18,258 bases of DNA, from the UHGV virus genome UHGV-0272440; one strand, 5' to 3'. The stretch is from a virus. This document shows positions 3,573 to 16,878 of this stretch, piece after piece. Every line of letters begins with the position of its first letter. Positions within the stretch are counted from its first letter, which is position 1. Under the pieces are notes generated by a model, which made no database searches, had not been told where the DNA came from, and saw nothing but the letters and a program-made list of their open reading frames with translations. A program made the position numbers and the translations under genes.

Positions 3573-4382
3573 TCAATGAACGGTATCGAGCAGCTTTAAC
3601 AGCTCAGGGAATCGGGATTCGAAGAAATGCGGCTGCGTCTCGCGCGGATTTGCGGGACTGGTGATGTTCTTGCCGAACATGCAGCCTTTCGCCGTCAGCG
3701 ACCAGAATTTTTTGATGTTGTTAATCGCAGTGCGGCTGTATCGTTCACGTTGTTCAACGATCCCCAGCTTCGCCATCTGGTGATATGCCTGATTAGCTGT
3801 CAGGCGGATACCATACTGCTTCAGCAGTGCACTCAATGATAGCGTGGGGCGGCTTGAGCCATCAGGCGCGTCAGCAGGAGCATCAATGGCATAGCGCGGT
3901 GCCAGATTCGGTAAGCCAACAGCCTCCTGGAGTTTCTGACAGGCACCAAGCACTGAAGAGTTAGACAGGTTTAACTCCCGGCGCATAAAGTCCAGCAGGA
4001 TCACGCCAGCCTGCATCTTGTCAGCAGCCTGTCCGGATAATTTTTCCGGTGCGCTGGTTACCATATCGAAAGTACGGATCACCTTCAGATGGAATGACGG
4101 GCTGATCCACATTGCATAGGCATACACCAGTTCCTTGCAGACATACGTTCCCCGTTCATTTCCCCCATGAATCACACTCACCGGGTCAACACCCAAATTC
4201 TGGGTGTTGGTCAATTCATGAACAAGCTCAACAGTTTGTTGGCTGGAAAGAAACTTTCCCGGCTCCTTGGTTCTGGCATTTGCACCAGATGCTACTGCTG
4301 CGCGATGCAGATCGTTCAGGCTGTAACGCCCATAAGCATCACGACGAACTTCAATACCATCAATGACCATCAGATTATTCAT
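3573..4382 (-). CDS. KilA-N domain protein (antirepressor-like)
   Basis: N-terminal region 'IDGIEVRRDAYGRYSLNDLHRAAV...GTYVCKELVYAYAMWISPSFHLKVIRTF' matches the KilA-N fold family. Start set at the ATG at 4382 (AAGGAGA upstream) rather than the ATG at 4415, which overlaps rusA. Confidence 0.65.
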   Translation of the reverse strand: MNNLMVIDGIEVRRDAYGRYSLNDLHRAAVASGANARTKEPGKFLSSQQTVELVHELTNTQNLGVDPVSVIHGGNERGTYVCKELVYAYAMWISPSFHLKVIRTFDMVTSAPEKLSGQAADKMQAGVILLDFMRRELNLSNSSVLGACQKLQEAVGLPNLAPRYAIDAPADAPDGSSRPTLSLSALLKQYGIRLTANQAYHQMAKLGIVEQRERYSRTAINNIKKFWSLTAKGCMFGKNITSPANPRETQPHFFESRFPELLKLLDTVH

Positions 4383-4401
4383 ACTTCGTTTCTCCTTTTG
4401 C

Positions 4402-4791
4402 TCAGGCGGCTGCACCCGCCGTTTTCTCGTACTTACTGATAGTGATCTCGACCTTCCCTTCCGGGATAACCGGTCCCCACTCCACCAGCATTCTTTTCAC
4501 CTGACTGTCGTCTTCCCACACACCCGCGTGGGTCAGGGCGTCAAACAGCGCCTTGTTATAGTTGTCCAGATCGCGGATCCGGTTATCTGGAGGAAACAAC
4601 ACGATCGCCACTGAAGCAGGTGCCGACGTTGGTTTCGGCAGGCGACGTAACTGCTCAACTATTGCTGCGCACGCCGCGCTCTGGAATTTTCGCCCCGCCG
4701 CGCTTATCAGACTCTTACCAGCAAACGCCCCTTTGTTGGGGTGTCGCCAGTACGTGTTCACGCTGGGCGGAAAAGGCAGGATCAGCTTCAT
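4402..4791 (-). CDS. rusA: Holliday junction resolvase RusA
   Basis: 129-aa ORF with the RusA hallmarks 'LPFPPSVNTYWR' and acidic catalytic cluster 'RRDLDNYNKALFDALTHAGVWEDDSQV'. Start overlaps the upstream stop (ATGA). Confidence 0.85.
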   Translation of the reverse strand: MKLILPFPPSVNTYWRHPNKGAFAGKSLISAAGRKFQSAACAAIVEQLRRLPKPTSAPASVAIVLFPPDNRIRDLDNYNKALFDALTHAGVWEDDSQVKRMLVEWGPVIPEGKVEITISKYEKTAGAAA

Positions 4792-5114
4792 ACTTTCAGG
4801 TCCCTCTCATGTAACCAGTGGGTTGCACGCAGCCTTGCGTTTTCCTCACCGGCAAGCAGTGCGCGGATAATCCCGACCGCCTCGCTGTCGTCGTCCTTCA
4901 CCGCGGTATGAAGCGTTATCCCCCGGGCCACGCCACGCTTTATCGTGATGACGCCTTTTTTCTCCAGTGCGCGAAGATGCTCCACCGCTGCATTCACTGA
5001 ACGGTATCCCAGCATGGTTGCCACCTCCTGATTGGTTGGCGGGAAGCCACGTTCTTTCTGATAAGAAATCAGCATATCCAGCACCTGCTGCTGGCATTGA
5101 GTTAACGTCGTCAT
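4788..5114 (-). CDS. LexA N-terminal DNA-binding-domain protein lacking the S24 peptidase domain
   Basis: 108 aa; aligns with the LexA winged-helix region: 'LTQCQQQVLDMLISYQKERGFPPTNQEVATMLGYRSVNAAVEHLRALEKKGVITIKRGVARGI' versus LexA '[63 protein letters not shown]'. No Ser/Lys catalytic domain follows. Confidence 0.7.
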   Translation of the reverse strand: MTTLTQCQQQVLDMLISYQKERGFPPTNQEVATMLGYRSVNAAVEHLRALEKKGVITIKRGVARGITLHTAVKDDDSEAVGIIRALLAGEENARLRATHWLHERDLKV

Positions 5115-7247: not shown

Positions 7248-7468
7248 GCCGCACCTCCGAGATGCTTCATGTTTTTTCCGGAGCGAAAGGCTATAAGCGG
7301 CATACTGACGCGGTAATTACGGCCCAGCGGTTCACAAATCACCTTCTGGCATTCACGGTCAACCAGGCTAACACGTAGAACATGCCCTGCAGGCGTGGTG
7401 TACCACTGACCCGGACGAGGACAACGGAAAGTATGATTGGTAAACCGTTTGAAAATATTCCGGATCAT
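7244..7468 (-). CDS. hypothetical small protein (74 aa), translationally coupled on both sides
   Basis: ATG at 7468 overlaps the upstream stop (ATGA) and its own stop overlaps the initiator ATG (ATGA). No recognisable family. Confidence 0.4.
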   Translation of the reverse strand: MIRNIFKRFTNHTFRCPRPGQWYTTPAGHVLRVSLVDRECQKVICEPLGRNYRVSMPLIAFRSGKNMKHLGGAA

Positions 7469-8616
7469 TTGCGCCCCCTTACCTCTGAAGGGTTCAGCGA
7501 CAAATTTATGAGACTGGCCAGTAGCGCCGCGTCGTTGATGCGGTCATACAGACTTACAGCCAGCGGGGATTCGGCTTTTGCCAACATGGGATAAAGCTGC
7601 TGCAGCCAGACCTGATGAATTGATGAAATGTAGGAATAGAGAACGCTGGCGTTATGTGCAACGTCGCTCGGTACAGAGGGCTTTGAAAGCTGTTTCTCCA
7701 TCTGGTTAAAGGCATTGATGTATGCCTCTTTGAACTGGGCAGCACGTTTACCCGTGAAACCCATAGCAAGAAACGCAAAACCGTCGCGTGTGATTTGGTA
7801 GCAAGGAAGTTTGCGACCTGTGCAATCAGTGTAATCACTCACCGAAAAATTGCGGGCAGTGAATGATGCTGAGCATTCAAGCGTGCGGATCTTTTTCAGT
7901 ACATCGTCATGACGTTTAGAGAAGAAGTCAGCAACAGCCAAAGAAGATGTAACAGCCTGACCATCAACGATGGCAATTTCAGGTTGAGAGATGGTTGGGA
8001 GAGTAGTCATGGTGACAGCCCCGGTAGTCAGTTTTTTAGAAAACTCACCACATGGGACGCCAATCACAGAGGTGGTGAGACGTACAGGGTTGGCGTTACC
8101 GGAGACTACCGAACCCGGCCCGACCGAAGTCGGCCCTGTACGCCACACCATAATTTGGGCGTAGCAATGCTCATGACACGAAAAAACCGCATGAGCGCGG
8201 TTATGCTCAGTAATCAATTTCAGGACGCCAATCCCGGCACCCGCTTTATAAGGTGCCTGAACAGTGTAACGTCCCGGAATGGCAGAATCAATGTGCTGGT
8301 GGTCCTTCACACTCAACAAAATCACGCCTGAATTTCCACAAAGGACTAAAGCACTCATGCGGGTAGTCTTTGCGAAGATAGATAACGCGCTGTGTTTCTG
8401 GCTCCCAACGAATAACATGAACATAAAGTCCTCTTCCGTCACGAAACCAGCGGTTAAGTTCCTGCACAACTCGCCCCCCACAGTCAGGTAAAGTTCTCTG
8501 TGGTTACTTACAGCCAGGTGATTTGGTAATCTGCATTCATGCCGTAACAACAGGTGTGCAGCGACACTGACCACCAGCTGTTGCGACAAACGGTTATTTG
8601 CCGTTAAACTGTTCAT
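7465..8616 (-). CDS. Rha-domain phage regulatory protein with an uncharacterised N-terminal region of about 200 aa
   Basis: C-terminal half ('IAIVDGQAVTSSLAVADFFSKRHDDVLKKIRTLE...YQITRDGFAFLAMGFTGKRAAQFKEAYINAFNQMEKQL') matches the Rha/phage-regulatory domain. The ATG at 8616 overlaps the upstream stop (ATGA) with GGAGA upstream. The internal ATG at 8010 is an alternative start that would give a roughly 180-aa Rha protein. Confidence 0.55.
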   Translation of the reverse strand: MNSLTANNRLSQQLVVSVAAHLLLRHECRLPNHLAVSNHRELYLTVGGELCRNLTAGFVTEEDFMFMLFVGSQKHSALSIFAKTTRMSALVLCGNSGVILLSVKDHQHIDSAIPGRYTVQAPYKAGAGIGVLKLITEHNRAHAVFSCHEHCYAQIMVWRTGPTSVGPGSVVSGNANPVRLTTSVIGVPCGEFSKKLTTGAVTMTTLPTISQPEIAIVDGQAVTSSLAVADFFSKRHDDVLKKIRTLECSASFTARNFSVSDYTDCTGRKLPCYQITRDGFAFLAMGFTGKRAAQFKEAYINAFNQMEKQLSKPSVPSDVAHNASVLYSYISSIHQVWLQQLYPMLAKAESPLAVSLYDRINDAALLASLINLSLNPSEVRGRK

Positions 8617-9164
8617 GCGTTAGTTTCTCCACAGACACAAAACGCCACGACGCCCGGAGCTGCACACTCGCGGGCGTCACTCTTTTCTGGAGCGCAGAAA
8701 ATTTTGTAGACCAGTGCCGCATGCTCCTGGAGCTTCGAAATTGACAGATACAATTCATCATTAATTGCTGTCTGCTCGTGTGGCTCCACTACCCCATCTT
8801 CGATTGCCGAACGAATCTGCTTTGAGTAACTCCCGATCTGTTCGATGACTTCCAGCAGGCGCTGGTTTATATCTGCGTTCTCTACTTCCTCAATTTCAGG
8901 AAGCGATACAAACACCCCACCAGCAGACTGTGCGACAGCATCCGCAATGTAGTGAGTGCCAGCAGCACGCTGTAAAATCATTGCCCATCCCAGCGGGAAA
9001 ATCTGATCGCCATCTGCACGAAGGCGGTTGAATAAAGCGTTCTCTGTAACATCCAGCCACTCAGCAGCTTCAGCGTAACCCCCTGGCAACGCCGCGATGG
9101 TTTTTCTGACAGCTTTCACGTACCACTCAGGCTGTTTTTCCACTTTCCAGTGATGATTACCCAC
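8613..9164 (-). CDS. Putative CII-like/YdaT-family regulatory protein
   Basis: 183-aa ORF immediately downstream of cro. GTG start with strong AGGAGG Shine-Dalgarno 6 nt upstream. Family assignment is from position and recollection of YdaT-like proteins following cro-like genes; not verified. Confidence 0.4.
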   Translation of the reverse strand: MGNHHWKVEKQPEWYVKAVRKTIAALPGGYAEAAEWLDVTENALFNRLRADGDQIFPLGWAMILQRAAGTHYIADAVAQSAGGVFVSLPEIEEVENADINQRLLEVIEQIGSYSKQIRSAIEDGVVEPHEQTAINDELYLSISKLQEHAALVYKIFCAPEKSDARECAAPGVVAFCVCGETNA

Positions 9165-9514: not shown

Positions 9515-10207
9515 ATGAACATAGGAAACCGAGTCAGACAACTTCGCCAGGCGAAGAACATGAAAATCGCCGATCTCGCTGAAGCAATAGGAGTGGATGC
9601 GGCGAATATCTCACGCCTGGAAACAGGTAAGCAGAAACAATTCACTGAACAAGCCCTGAGTAATATTGCCAAGAGCTTAGGTGTTGATATTGCTGATCTC
9701 TTTACCTCAGACTTCAAAAGTAATACTGTATGTAAAAACAGTATTAGTGAGGATGTTGCGCAGGTGAAGGATGTATTCCGTATTGAAATGCTGGATGTCA
9801 GTGCCAGTGCGGGAAATGGCCTTATCCAGGGCGGTGATGTCATTGATGTGATTCATGCCATTGAATACAGAACTGATAATGCTGTATCGATGTTTGGTGG
9901 ACGGCCAGCCAATCACATTAAAGTTATCAACGTTCGTGGGGACAGTATGTGTCCAACCATTGAGCCAGGAGATCTCATCTTCGTTGATGTCAGTATCAAT
10001 CAGTTTGATGGAGATGGTATCTATGTATTTGGTTTTGATGATAAAATTTATGTCAAACGACTGCAAATGATACCTGACAAACTACTGGTGATTTCTGATA
10101 ACCAGATTTACCGTGAATGGGGAATTACCAGCGAAAATGAACACCGGTTTATGGTCTTTGGAAAGGTCTTAATCAGCCAGTCACAAACCATTAAGCGACA
10201 CAATTAA
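9515..10207 (+). CDS. CI-type prophage repressor (HTH plus S24 LexA-like autopeptidase domain)
   Basis: 230 aa; N-terminal HTH 'MKIADLAEAIGVDAANISRLETGK'; C-terminal S24 motifs 'VRGDSMCPTIEPGDLIFVD' (Ser nucleophile) and 'YVKRL' (Lys). Confidence 0.85.
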   Translation: MNIGNRVRQLRQAKNMKIADLAEAIGVDAANISRLETGKQKQFTEQALSNIAKSLGVDIADLFTSDFKSNTVCKNSISEDVAQVKDVFRIEMLDVSASAGNGLIQGGDVIDVIHAIEYRTDNAVSMFGGRPANHIKVINVRGDSMCPTIEPGDLIFVDVSINQFDGDGIYVFGFDDKIYVKRLQMIPDKLLVISDNQIYREWGITSENEHRFMVFGKVLISQSQTIKRHN

Positions 10208-15873: not shown

Positions 15874-15895
15874 CCCGCTTCGGCGGGTTAGTTTT
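15874..15895. terminator. Bidirectional Rho-independent terminator between convergent genes
   Basis: Stem CCCGC (15874..15878), loop TTCG, stem GCGGG (15883..15887), flanked by an A-run upstream (U-run on the minus strand) and TTAGTTTT downstream. Confidence 0.7.
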
Positions 15896-16322
15896 CATCT
15901 TTATAATTCTGGGCAATTCGCGCCAGATAGCTCATCACATCATGTTTTCTTGCTTTTTCATGTGCATCGGGATACATAATAGCAATGAGTGAATATTTAT
16001 TCTCATAAAGCTCACCTTGGACATACACAAGACAAGCATCATTATCAGGATCACCTTTCTTGCAGACCCTATCCGGTTGTGGAAGTTTCTCGGGAAACTT
16101 GTTTGGCGGTAGACAAAGATGGATATGCATCAACCCAGCCCGAAAAGCACCATAAGGCTGAGTATACGCAACGTCCCTACCGAAATAATGCGGAAGCTCA
16201 CCGGTTGCTTTGTATCTCTTGAAATCATCAATGATAGAAGACTCTAGCTCCGGGAATTTGAGAAAAATTTCATCAAAAAATTCAGCTCTAGTTTCTGGAT
16301 TAATAGAGACTTCTAGATGCAT
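15888..16322 (-). CDS. YafO-family toxin-like protein (ribosome-dependent mRNA interferase family)
   Basis: 144 aa; blocks parallel to E. coli YafO as recalled: 'HYFGRDVAYTQPY' vs 'DIFGRDALYDDSF', 'HIHLC' vs 'HIHLA', 'ACLVYVQG' vs 'AHLVYCQG', 'SLIAIMYPDAHEKAR' vs 'LLIAILKPEPHKLAR'. Lies in AT-rich DNA. Confidence 0.6.
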   Translation of the reverse strand: MHLEVSINPETRAEFFDEIFLKFPELESSIIDDFKRYKATGELPHYFGRDVAYTQPYGAFRAGLMHIHLCLPPNKFPEKLPQPDRVCKKGDPDNDACLVYVQGELYENKYSLIAIMYPDAHEKARKHDVMSYLARIAQNYKDEN

Positions 16323-16338: not shown

Positions 16339-16878
16339 TTAGTGAAATTGCATCGATTTTAGCTTATTTGATGTGTGACTAGCTAGTGCTGCAATTCCAG
16401 CAAGATCCGCGCGCCCGCTAAAAGTAACAGTTTCTTTAAATATGCTCTTTATGTAATTGTTAAGGCGAGTGACAGATGAGCGAGCTTTAGCAATATGACG
16501 CCAGTAAACCTTCAGTTCTGACCTGATAAATTCAGGCAGAGGCGATTCAATTGTACGCTTCACTTCTTCTTCAAAAGCACGCAGGAACATTTCGCATGCC
16601 TCTGTCGTATCTGTCCCGTTTTTGGAAACAAACTCGCGAGCATCTTGGCTATTAAGATCAATCAAACAGATATAGTAGTCATCTGCTGCAATTGTTAACT
16701 TTTGCAAGATCTCCTTACCCTCTTCCATTTTGCGTGAGAATTCCTCAACAGAAGGAGAGTACTCAAAAGGTTTAGCAATCACAGGGGCTGGCTGGATGAT
16801 GAACTCCTGCGCCATAGCAGCAGGACAAGCCAGAGGCCCGCACAATGCAGCAAAAGTAATGGCGTTAAACGGATTCAT
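16339..16878 (-). CDS. hypothetical protein with hydrophobic N-terminus (possible signal peptide), upstream partner of the YafO-like gene
   Basis: 179 aa; ATG with GAGGT Shine-Dalgarno; N-terminus 'MNPFNAITFAALCGPLACPAAMAQE' is hydrophobic with an AxA-like site but no basic n-region. No resemblance to YafN/Phd-type antitoxins. Confidence 0.5.
   Translation of the reverse strand: MNPFNAITFAALCGPLACPAAMAQEFIIQPAPVIAKPFEYSPSVEEFSRKMEEGKEILQKLTIAADDYYICLIDLNSQDAREFVSKNGTDTTEACEMFLRAFEEEVKRTIESPLPEFIRSELKVYWRHIAKARSSVTRLNNYIKSIFKETVTFSGRADLAGIAALASHTSNKLKSMQFH

Follow-up and report, generated by a model that had tools for sequence, protein, structure and literature searches.

The 383-codon open reading frame at 7465-8616 on the minus strand of the UHGV virus genome UHGV-0272440 (the window, the whole 18,258-nt stretch analysed here) probably represents two nested genes in a single frame, a long form made only from transcripts of the early operon and a short Rha-family form made from an internal promoter under the control of the IsrK and C4 RNAs. 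We place the probability of this reading at roughly two in three, and give the same weight to the locus being the lambdoid-prophage form of an antisense-RNA cassette for immunity and antirepression known from P1/P7 (c4-icd-ant), P4 (seqA-CI-seqC within eta/kil) and Gifsy-1 (isrK-orf45-anrP). On this reading residues 1-202 of the long product would be a translated leader, the amino-acid sequence of which is largely irrelevant.

Organization of the locus

The protein-coding features are:

8613-9164, minus: CII/CP76 (YmfL-like) gene, 183 aa; Pfam PF06892, E=7.9e-15; RefSeq relatives are named YmfL
7465-8616, minus: long "Eta-like" ORF, 383 aa, read from the ATG at 8616 to the stop at 7465; Pfam Ash and Rha matches
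8288-8467, minus, in a frame different from that of the long ORF: DUF4222 gene, 59 aa, GTG start; Pfam PF13973, E=9.5e-14
7465-8010, minus: nested gene for a 181-aa Rha-family protein, a presumed antirepressor; PF09669, E=3.8e-31; TIGR02681, E=2.4e-30

The initial annotation had described a 383-aa ORF with a well-supported start, and both points held, the strand, which that description lacked, being the minus strand. The ATG of the long ORF (8616-8614) and the TGA of the CII/CP76 gene (8615-8613) share the tetranucleotide ATGA at 8616-8613, and GGAG is present upstream at 8630-8627. The CII/CP76 gene is a member of the early (PR-type) operon, downstream of a cro-like gene (9417-9157), and an S24-type repressor is encoded at 9515-10207. 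The Rha-like block had likewise been correctly placed in the C-terminal half, where the Pfam Rha domain (PF09669) is found at residues 223-308 (E=1.2e-30); the ATG at 8010 is residue 203, in frame. The N-terminal half, said to match nothing, is in fact matched by Pfam Phage_ASH (PF10554, residues 117-212, E=1.2e-10), by the Rfam models for isrK and C4 and, in another frame, by DUF4222. The Ash+Rha architecture (PF10554+PF09669) is already common in the databases, where it is annotated as a single protein, and the architecture of the "ash family protein" or "Rha/Ash" proteins of Stx "Eru" phages (PMC8951638) is identical to that in the window. Thousands of records label the ORF as a 383- or 387-aa "Rha family transcriptional regulator" or "peptidase", and the start chosen for the same frame differs between entries (383, 297, 287 or 181 aa).

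This widespread annotation as one protein, the strength of the Ash match and the view taken of Ash in the Stx-phage literature, as a protein domain whose function is unknown (PMC8951638), would all favor a true protein of two domains, with Rha joined to a folded, possibly metal-binding His/Cys-rich domain made up of residues 1-200 or of the Ash segment (117-212). We consider such a protein very improbable. The reported richness in His and Cys is real but modest, with the two making up 17/202 (8.4%) of residues 1-202 as against 3.3% of the Rha half, and a zinc-binding His/Cys domain was rejected on this low content. AlphaFold2 models of the 383-aa ORF, built on a shallow alignment of 17 close homologues in which the Rha control itself reaches only 43-58, have a mean pLDDT of 33.6 and values of 21-30 over residues 1-210. 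The stretch HNRAHAVFSCHEHCYAQIMVWR (residues 138-159, 8205-8140) is the translated isrK terminator hairpin, U-tract, linker and 5' end of C4. As laid out below, residues 50-110 are an out-of-frame reading of a gene under purifying selection, residues 121-183 translate two structured RNAs in which base changes compensate one another, and the variable stretches lose amino-acid identity while keeping RNA complementarity.

Conservation of the open frame

What is conserved in the long frame is its openness and not its amino-acid sequence. The DUF4222 gene, which PGAP annotates in relatives, overlies residues 50-110 of the long ORF, and its TGA lies within the putative -35 hexamer of the isrK promoter. 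In codon-position counts restricted to truly homologous sequence pairs, the DUF4222 frame differs from that of one relative (L010) at 24 synonymous and 10 non-synonymous codons, with the changes falling at third codon positions, and by this pattern the gene is under purifying selection in its own frame. Read in the long frame, the same overlap contains 3 synonymous and 31 non-synonymous codon differences from L010, and no amino-acid-level purifying selection was found for residues 50-110 in this comparison. The variable leader segments of the relatives encode amino-acid sequences that are wholly unrelated.

The openness of the frame was surveyed in 113 distinct relatives, for which the counts are not independent owing to shared ancestry: the long frame runs through the cassette without a stop in 78 of them, and the other two frames do so in 16 and 3. 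The long frame averages 0.90 stops per sequence and the others 2.34 and 3.24, with shuffling predicting 3.2; for 8256-8011 about 3.2 stops are expected per frame. A chance ORF was rejected on these counts. The frame is preserved by compensating non-triplet indels, and in P2-like loci, where indels between isrK and C4 amount to a net +9 nt (a spacing of 110 rather than 101 nt), the same frame is still open. Lineages whose DUF4222 genes differ at 43 nt also keep it open, and in some tandem arrays it continues unbroken through two modules. All the long-ORF starts lie upstream of the isrK promoter, and in 45 of the 78 open-frame (class A) loci the start overlaps by 4 nt the stop of a preceding ORF that is 60 codons or longer, with 14 different junction sequences among the overlapping loci; a mis-called start followed by non-coding DNA was rejected on the strength of these overlaps. 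The upstream start of the long ORF also seems to be meaningful, since many relatives, like P4 eta, keep the frame open and its start coupled to the preceding gene. When E. coli K-12 e14 was compared with the query, only the ymfL end matched, the cassette being absent from e14.

An unlikely alternative is that only the 181-aa Rha protein is made. The preceding 600 bp would then be an untranslated regulatory leader plus DUF4222, the open frame would be a by-product of RNA-level conservation freezing a stop-less sequence, and gene callers would extend the ORF to the first ATG. The RNA elements and DUF4222 do account for the leader, the long frame is without amino-acid conservation, an intrinsic terminator stands in the middle of the "ORF", and AlphaFold2 gives no confident fold for residues 1-210, within the limits of a shallow alignment and a poor Rha control. 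In 24 of the 113 relatives, the experimentally studied Gifsy-1 among them, the frame is closed by a stop just before C4 and a short uORF is found instead, and the cassette can therefore do without read-through translation. Moreover, the 16 relatives in which frame 1 is open imply that long open stretches are not very rare in a G+C-rich structured region. Against this stand the parts of the frame outside the RNAs, which are also free of stops (P ~0.06 for 8616-8468 and ~0.04 across the DUF4222 overlap), the openness of the frame despite the 43 nt that distinguish the DUF4222 genes of different lineages, its survival of mutually compensating non-triplet indels, the overlap of start and upstream stop at 14 junction sequences, the unbroken tandem arrays, and the translation of the homologous P4 eta, as summarized in PMC10111431.

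The IsrK and C4 RNAs and the internal start

The RNA-level features, all within the long ORF, are:

8263-8291, minus: putative sigma-70 isrK promoter, TTGATT (8291-8286), 17 nt, TACACT (8268-8263), read from the sequence
8180-8256, minus: IsrK / P4 seqA-type sRNA; Rfam RF01394, 59.3 bits (gathering score 50), E=1.1e-10
8231-8225, minus: b1 site in IsrK, 7 bp complementary to C4 b'
8215-8205, minus: a1 site in IsrK, 11 bp (G.U pairs included) complementary to C4 a'
8202-8185, minus: hairpin of the intrinsic terminator of isrK, followed by a U-tract, from a terminator scan
8068-8155, minus: C4 / P4 CI-type antisense RNA; Rfam RF01695, 77.7 bits (gathering score 45), E=5e-14
8149-8151, minus: AUG within the C4 5' helix and in frame with Rha; counterpart of the first AUG in Gifsy-1 orf45
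8114-8104 and 8096-8090, minus: a' loop and b' single-stranded stretch of C4
8020-8063, minus: C4 target region in the mRNA leader, with b2 at 8063-8057 (TTGGCGT) and a2 at 8029-8020 (GACTACCGGG)

Both isrK and C4 score above the Rfam gathering thresholds in the window, in 16/16 of the first-fetched relatives, in P4 and in Gifsy-1, and their DNA underlies residues 121-146 and 154-183 of the long ORF, respectively. Transcription of isrK is predicted to start at G8256, and its terminator lies within the early operon, with the replication genes and Q located downstream of it. The promoter falls below the threshold of a simple promoter scan, its hexamers matching at 8/12 positions, and for this reason we infer it from conservation and from its geometry: the block is kept in the relatives L001-L012, even where the upstream genes differ, and its spacing agrees with that of the Gifsy-1 isrK promoter (TTGACA-17-TATATT), for which activity has been shown (PMC4825925). 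In C4, 10 of the 27 consensus pairs have compensatory changes among 40 relatives, and a U.U mismatch in the long helix (8145/8078) is peculiar to this window. By these patterns of variation, the conserved blocks of residues 121-183 are RNA helices.

The sites to which C4 is predicted to bind in the leader offer 10 bp (a2) and 7 bp (b2) of complementarity, and a2 includes GGGG, a Shine-Dalgarno surrogate 9 nt upstream of the ATG at 8010, which is weak in comparison with the GGAGG of most relatives. Across 59 specificity types the C4 loops, the IsrK sites and the leader sites covary three ways, and the a'-a2 runs average 9.9 for cognate pairs and 6.3 for non-cognate ones. When RNAduplex was applied to whole C4 against the leader or isrK, ignoring intramolecular structure, 106/500 shuffled leaders and 25/500 shuffled isrK sequences equalled the real ones; the evidence for the C4 targets consists of the site-specific complementarity and the comparison of cognate with non-cognate pairs. 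In Gifsy-1 the mutations G28A and G31A have been validated with compensatory changes (PMC4825925), and their positions fall within the b1 site.

The three-site covariation and the complementarity of C4 to its Shine-Dalgarno sequence thus argue that the ATG at 8010 is a genuine, RNA-controlled start of the 181-aa Rha-family protein. This ATG is kept in 16/16 of the first-fetched relatives and aligns with the start of P4 kil; the MTT/MAT-x-P start is conserved in all the aligned loci and in P4 kil, and GGAGGCTGCCATCATGGC with its ATG is conserved ahead of differing cargo genes. The nested product passes the family cut-offs comfortably, with 106-108 bits for PF09669 (cut-off 29.9) and about 103-105 bits for TIGR02681 (cut-off 45.95), and from its place in the cassette it is a presumed antirepressor.

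It is conceivable that regulation acts instead as in Gifsy-1, at the AUG at 8151 (the orf45 equivalent). As the window has no stop between this AUG and the ATG at 8010, the main regulated product would then be a 228-aa extended Rha protein rather than the 181-aa one, an arrangement that is compatible with nested genes but that we hold to be quite improbable. This AUG is conserved and in frame, and expression of Gifsy-1 anrP needs translation from the equivalent AUG (PMC4825925). However, 8151 is not preceded by a Shine-Dalgarno sequence, the AUG sits within the C4 5' helix so that its conservation is accounted for by the RNA, and the covarying a2 site lies on the Shine-Dalgarno sequence of the ATG at 8010 and not on that of 8151.

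Taken with the nested reading, these observations bear on the two proposals of the initial annotation. Neither holds in the form given. A novel domain fusion is not supported, as the Ash+Rha architecture is already common, residues 1-202 show no amino-acid-level selection and their conserved blocks are RNA helices. The suggestion of two genes with a missed start at the ATG at 8010 comes closer, in that the internal start is conserved, carries a2 on its Shine-Dalgarno sequence and corresponds to the P4 kil start, but the 600 bp upstream contain no second protein gene of that frame. That region, for which a non-coding or poorly conserved sequence had been envisaged as the other outcome, comprises an RNA cassette and a small gene in a different frame. 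The evidence from this locus indicates that what is conserved in the Ash family is the IsrK and C4 RNAs, together with their targets, as seen through one reading frame, and not a folded protein domain.

Relationship to known cassettes

The P4 immunity region has nested genes, eta and kil, that contain seqA and the CI RNA (Forti et al. 1999, as summarized in PMC10111431). Translation of eta has been shown to prevent termination or immunity on transcripts from the upstream promoter. P4 and the window have the same order of elements: upstream gene, ATGA, long ORF, internal promoter, seqA/IsrK, CI/C4, target on the ribosome-binding site and internal ATG. P4 eta (199 aa) is ATGA-coupled to ORF88, extends across isrK and C4, and reads C4 in the same frame as does the long ORF of the window. 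Both proteins match Pfam Ash, P4 Eta over residues 22-146 (E=3.8e-23), and the context of the internal start is homologous (EAAIMAT in P4, GAVTMTT in the window). As in P4, the start of the window's long ORF precedes the internal promoter, and its frame covers the two RNAs and includes the internal ATG. The nested product of P4, however, is the 65-aa Icd-like Kil and that of the window a 181-aa Rha-family protein; the NCBIfam Icd-like model matches P4 Eta at residues 146-193 and gives no match to the window ORF. P4 is a satellite, whereas the window belongs to the early operon of a lambdoid prophage; the spacing between seqA and CI is longer in P4, and, unlike in P4, DUF4222 overlaps the long ORF of the window in another frame.

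Gifsy-1, a Salmonella lambdoid prophage like that of the window, has in isrK-orf45-anrP a tandem arrangement of IsrK and a C4-like RNA (STnc1160), with the same promoter geometry and a'/a1/a2 and b'/b1/b2 sites. Its cargo is an antirepressor-type gene, the translation of which IsrK activates in trans (PMC4825925). The two differ in frame organization: Gifsy-1 (class B) has TGA-ATT-ATG, with a TGA just ahead of the AUG in C4, and a uORF of 45 codons that ends in an ATGA overlap with the start of anrP, whereas in the window (class A) the frame is open and continuous with the cargo, and there is no Gifsy-1-type short uORF from the C4 AUG. BLASTP detected no homology between AnrP and the Rha protein of the window (E=0.74). 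Further, the Gifsy-1 cassette lies after Q and that of the window between the cII-like gene and the replication genes.

The window also has the features of C4/CI cassettes in general, namely a C4-type RNA, an upstream a1/b1 element and a2/b2 over the ribosome-binding site. In the immI operon of P1/P7 (c4, icd, ant), C4 is cut from the leader of the operon that it represses, its a' and b' elements pair with a2 and b2 over the ribosome-binding site of the next gene and with a1 and b1 upstream, and the cargo is an antirepressor. The likeness to P1/P7 rests on the Rfam families (RF01695, RF03163) and on this established knowledge, and the window, unlike P1/P7, lacks an icd-like uORF. A related C4-type system is found in N15 (PMC3632133).

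Proposed mechanism

We infer from sequence and by homology the promoter, the transcription start, the processing of C4 and the use of either start codon in the following scheme. In the lysogen the internal promoter would yield short IsrK and some read-through RNA, from which C4 would be released. C4 would pair with a2/b2 and block initiation at the ATG at 8010, such that the 181-aa Rha-family protein would be absent and the untranslated RNA would probably be terminated. The decoy sites in IsrK may titrate C4 or refold the leader, and by homology with Gifsy-1 accumulated IsrK would turn translation on. Once the early PR-type promoter is active, ribosomes finishing the CII/YmfL-like gene would re-initiate at the overlapping ATG at 8616, a coupling that is predicted to operate here, and would then cross DUF4222 (out of frame), the isrK terminator, C4 and a2/b2. 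Their passage would prevent formation of the terminator hairpin and of C4 duplexes and deny Rho access to the RNA. This could let the early transcript extend to the downstream replication genes and Q, and Rha would be produced as the C-terminal portion of the 383-aa product. Such a mechanism has been demonstrated for P4 eta.

Implications

As biology this is not new: the P4 eta/kil and Gifsy-1 IsrK paradigms are extended to another lambdoid prophage, with an Rha cargo. A broader proposal, which we offer tentatively and at a little under even odds, is that translating through the cassette is a general, selected device of lambdoid prophages rather than a peculiarity of P4. An ORF with an irrelevant amino-acid sequence would be maintained without stops over the out-of-frame small gene, the promoter, the sRNA with its terminator and the antisense RNA, and ribosomes coming from the early operon would erase both the terminator and the RNA-RNA repression in cis. 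Lytic transcripts could thereby pass, and the Rha protein would be delivered as a long isoform. The Ash domain of Pfam would then be no more than an RNA switch seen in translation, and the Rha/Ash proteins of Stx and other phages would occur in two or three nested forms (383, 228 and 181 aa), each regulated differently.

If half of this ORF is indeed an IsrK/C4 switch with a nested start, annotation of such loci would need to include the RNA genes, DUF4222 and the internal start. It would also change the view of how induction is controlled in these E. coli and Shigella prophages, many of which are relatives of Stx phages, and would bear on how protein-family resources handle families that mirror structured RNAs.

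An isrK-C4 cassette within the long reading frame

The 383-codon ATG-to-stop ORF at 7465-8616 described in the initial annotation is present on the minus strand, and its upstream start is well supported, as had been proposed: the ATG (8616-8614) shares an ATGA with the stop codon (TGA, 8615-8613) of the 183-aa gene before it, and GGAG lies 10 nt upstream. The Rha block likewise falls in the C-terminal half (Pfam Rha, residues 223-308, E=1.2e-30). The N-terminal half had been thought to match nothing recognisable, which is contradicted both at the protein level, where Pfam Phage_ASH matches residues 117-212 (E=1.2e-10), and at the DNA level, where a covariance-model scan detects isrK and C4. 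The peptide quoted as an example of this half, HNRAHAVFSCHEHCYAQIMVWR, corresponds to 8205-8140 and is the isrK terminator, linker and C4 5' end in translation.

RNA elements of the cassette
8256-8180, minus: isrK (Rfam RF01394, 59.3 bits, above curated threshold)
8231-8225, minus: b1, site in IsrK
8215-8205, minus: a1, site in IsrK
8202-8185 and U-tract, minus: hairpin of the intrinsic terminator closing the isrK match (terminator scan)
8155-8068, minus: C4 antisense RNA (Rfam RF01695, 77.7 bits, above curated threshold)
8114-8104, minus: a', loop of C4 hairpin 2
8096-8090, minus: b', single-stranded stretch after C4 hairpin 2
8063-8057, minus: b2, site downstream of C4
8029-8020, minus: a2, site downstream of C4

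As located from an alignment of relatives, a' and b' of C4 are complementary to a1 and b1 in IsrK and to b2 and a2 downstream of C4, and the GGGG within a2 serves as the Shine-Dalgarno sequence for the ATG at 8010, 9 nt before it. The long closing helix of the window's C4 contains a U.U mismatch (8145/8078, minus strand) at a pair kept in 39 of 40 sampled sequences; it arises from a G to T change at 8145, which in the long frame replaces Gly by Trp (MVGR to MVWR), and the closest relative (L001) has G.

The N-terminal half had also been called His/Cys-rich, and residues 1-202 are indeed richer in His and Cys than the Rha half (8.4% vs 3.3%), but this enrichment is modest, and we consider a folded domain here very unlikely. 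AlphaFold2 gave a pLDDT of 21-30 for residues 1-210, a weak test given a shallow alignment with which the Rha half itself reached just 43-58.

The suggestion of two genes, the second starting at ATG 8010 (residue 203 of the long ORF), holds in that this ATG is a conserved start, but the DNA upstream is not a second protein gene in that frame. An equivalent ATG is kept in every aligned locus, mostly as AGGAGGCTGCCATCATGGC. The cargo genes that it opens differ: some encode one of several Rha variants, SfV-type phages have a 77-aa protein in this position and Gifsy-1 has AnrP; the P4 counterpart begins kil (MATTLTPSHPEF..., 65 aa). Because the ATG is conserved before differing cargo genes and is the kil start in P4, ATG 8010 appears to be a genuine start placed under antisense-RNA control.

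Conservation and covariation of the RNA sites

Related sequence is frequent, with 3085 matching E. coli RefSeq records, of which 565 match across most of the query; a 311-bp core has matches in 120 phage records. The tandem arrangement of isrK and C4 was found in all 16 loci of the first comparison, which include 1720a-02, mEp460, ST64B, SfV, 2H10, Stx phages, ASU11, P2-like phages and a Yersinia phage, and also in P4 and Gifsy-1. All three copies of the sites (C4, IsrK and downstream) vary jointly between phages in the alignment of loci, and this joint variation of C4 a'/b' with complementary sites in IsrK and downstream is a signature shared with the P1/P4 antisense systems. A wider sample, picked blind to reading frames with a DNA pattern based on the 5' core of C4, yielded 113 distinct cores with 59 distinct a'/b' types, among which a'-a2 complementarity averages 9.9 contiguous pairs for cognate vs 6.3 for non-cognate combinations. 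The C4 consensus structure has 27 pairs, with compensatory double changes in 10 and almost none broken. Two Gifsy-1 mutations confirmed experimentally through compensatory changes, G28A and G31A (PMC4825925), lie in the b1 site.

Tandem arrays, in which two or three full isrK-C4-cargo modules are repeated every ~653-659 nt, occur on certain viral contigs (L022, at 6638 and 7294; L035; L036; L052, with three copies; L095; L112; also L093 and L098), and the two modules typed in L052 differ in a'/b' type. A single open frame runs unbroken across two modules in L093, L098 and L112; such a frame may be the source of P0005 (598 aa) and P0026 (593 aa), two proteins that exceed the 383-aa form by ~210 aa. 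Among other Rfam elements near the cassette, STnc100 lies beside the repressor gene of an E. coli prophage (L001, 1217-1433, minus) and ryfA in Yersinia phage vB_YpM_41 (L015, 149-447, minus); the Rfam scan found neither in the window.

Maintenance of the long frame

A further gene overlaps the long ORF and is annotated by PGAP in close relatives:
8467-8288, minus: DUF4222 gene, 59 codons, in a frame other than that of the long ORF (Pfam, E=9.5e-14)

In this stretch third codon positions of the DUF4222 frame take 29 of 43 substitutions against the locus L010 and 14 of 20 against ST64B, both diverged relatives. Codon differences from L010 are 24 synonymous and 10 non-synonymous in the DUF4222 frame, and 3 and 31 in the long frame. 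As the substitutions follow DUF4222 third positions and not the long frame, residues 50-110 of the long ORF are free of protein-level selection; in the variable segments the amino-acid sequence is not at all conserved. The main alternative, that the long frame is never translated, is nonetheless one we regard as unlikely. From isrK +1 to the internal ATG, the long-ORF frame (set relative to the AUG in C4) is open in 78 of the 113 distinct sequences, and the other two in 16 and 3.

Mean stops per sequence
Long-ORF frame: 0.90
Frame 1: 2.34
Frame 2: 3.24
Shuffled expectation: 3.2

Within the window, the chance of freedom from stops is ~0.06 before DUF4222 and ~0.04 over it (synonymous resampling of DUF4222). 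Leader indels among aligned relatives are triplets, and the P2-like phages combine a deletion of 2 nt with an insertion of 11 nt, for a net gain of 9 nt. All 78 long ORFs begin upstream of the putative isrK promoter, the nearest first ATG lying 51 nt upstream of the predicted transcription start, and 45 of them have a 4-nt start/stop overlap with a preceding ORF of 60 codons or more, in 14 junction sequences; by a rough control, the rate of such overlaps among start codons of the other two frames is ~5%. These comparisons indicate that the long frame is maintained and is not an accident.

Genomic surroundings

The window is the early region of a lambdoid prophage, with the following landmarks.

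9515-10207, plus: S24/LexA-type repressor
9417-9157, minus: Cro-like HTH gene
9164-8613, minus: CII/CP76 (YmfL-like) gene, 183 aa
7247-6255, minus: replication-region gene
2562-1810, minus: antiterminator Q

The minus-strand order is Cro-like, CII/CP76, long ORF, 74-aa ORF, replication-region gene, PerC, Dam, LexA-DBD protein, RusA, KilA-N protein, DUF968, Q, methylase and tRNA-Met; given this order, transcription of the early rightward-type operon meets the isrK terminator before it reaches the replication genes and Q. The 74-aa ORF (7468-7244), whose ATG shares an ATGA with the Rha ORF stop (7465-7468) and which precedes the replication gene, lacks a Pfam match but is conserved in E. coli relatives, SfV and mEp460, where it is listed as a hypothetical protein. 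The operon has a second "Bro network" gene (KilA-N domain, 280 aa; 3573-4415, minus), with RusA on one side and DUF968/Q on the other, and the Rfam scan of the window found no C4 or isrK match beside it. Adjoining RusA in the early operon, a 108-aa protein (4788-5114, minus) consists of the LexA DNA-binding domain alone, without the S24 peptidase part. Downstream of Q and the DNA methylase is a tRNA-Met (CAT anticodon; 28-103, minus), a position where tRNA genes are frequent in Stx and Gifsy-type phages; in Gifsy-1 a tRNA-Arg lies close to the isrK locus. The leftward region has at its far end a YafO-type toxin domain protein (15888-16322, minus) and an adjacent 179-aa ORF without a Pfam match (16339-16878), and the two may form a toxin-antitoxin pair.

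Comparison with P4 and Gifsy-1, and a model

The arrangement recurs in P4, where eta (199 codons, 8767-8168) is ATGA-coupled to ORF88, reads across both isrK/seqA and C4/CI in the frame used by the long ORF, and ends as kil; residues 22-146 of Eta match Pfam Ash (E=3.8e-23). In P4 the eta-internal promoter is constitutive and its transcript is terminated via CI-seqA interactions, Kil being translated on read-through; full-length Eta is translated only from an upstream promoter, coupled to the alpA homologue, and its translation prevents termination (PMC10111431, summarising Forti et al. 1999). The cargo in the window differs from that of P4 in not being Icd/Kil-like. Two Gifsy-1 features are also missing, namely homology of the cargo to AnrP and a short uORF whose stop overlaps the start of the cargo. 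Judged from sequence, the locus displays every testable feature of a C4-type cassette and of the nested-ORF layout.

We propose that in the lysogen a putative internal promoter would produce IsrK and C4, with C4 masking the ribosome-binding site of ATG 8010 and so keeping the Rha-family protein, a presumed antirepressor, off; IsrK would offer decoy sites and, by analogy with Gifsy-1, might turn this protein on. Once the early promoter is active, ribosomes that arrive by coupling from the CII/YmfL-like gene would translate the long ORF across the terminator and the RNA-RNA target sites; the early transcript would then no longer respond to the cassette, and Rha would be made as a long isoform. 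The in-frame AUG at 8151, inside the C4 5' helix and equivalent to the Gifsy-1 orf45 start, might be the start of a third isoform, 228 aa long.

Earlier work has noted that lambdoid prophages have IsrK/C4 homologues (PMC3632133) and has placed CI inside a "Bro network" gene (PMC10111431). Ash is still a domain of unknown function in the Stx-phage literature (PMC8951638), and a survey of P4-like satellites used PF10554 as the profile for the epsilon component (PMC8628076). As PF10554 matches P4 Eta residues 22-146, which is the seqA-CI region upstream of epsilon, its hits may point to the RNA immunity cassette and not to epsilon. The 383/387-aa Pfam Ash+Rha protein is widespread in databases as a "Rha family transcriptional regulator" or "peptidase". 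The value of the present analysis lies in correcting the annotation of this ORF and in comparative evidence that an open frame and its coupling appear to be maintained across many lambdoid cassettes.
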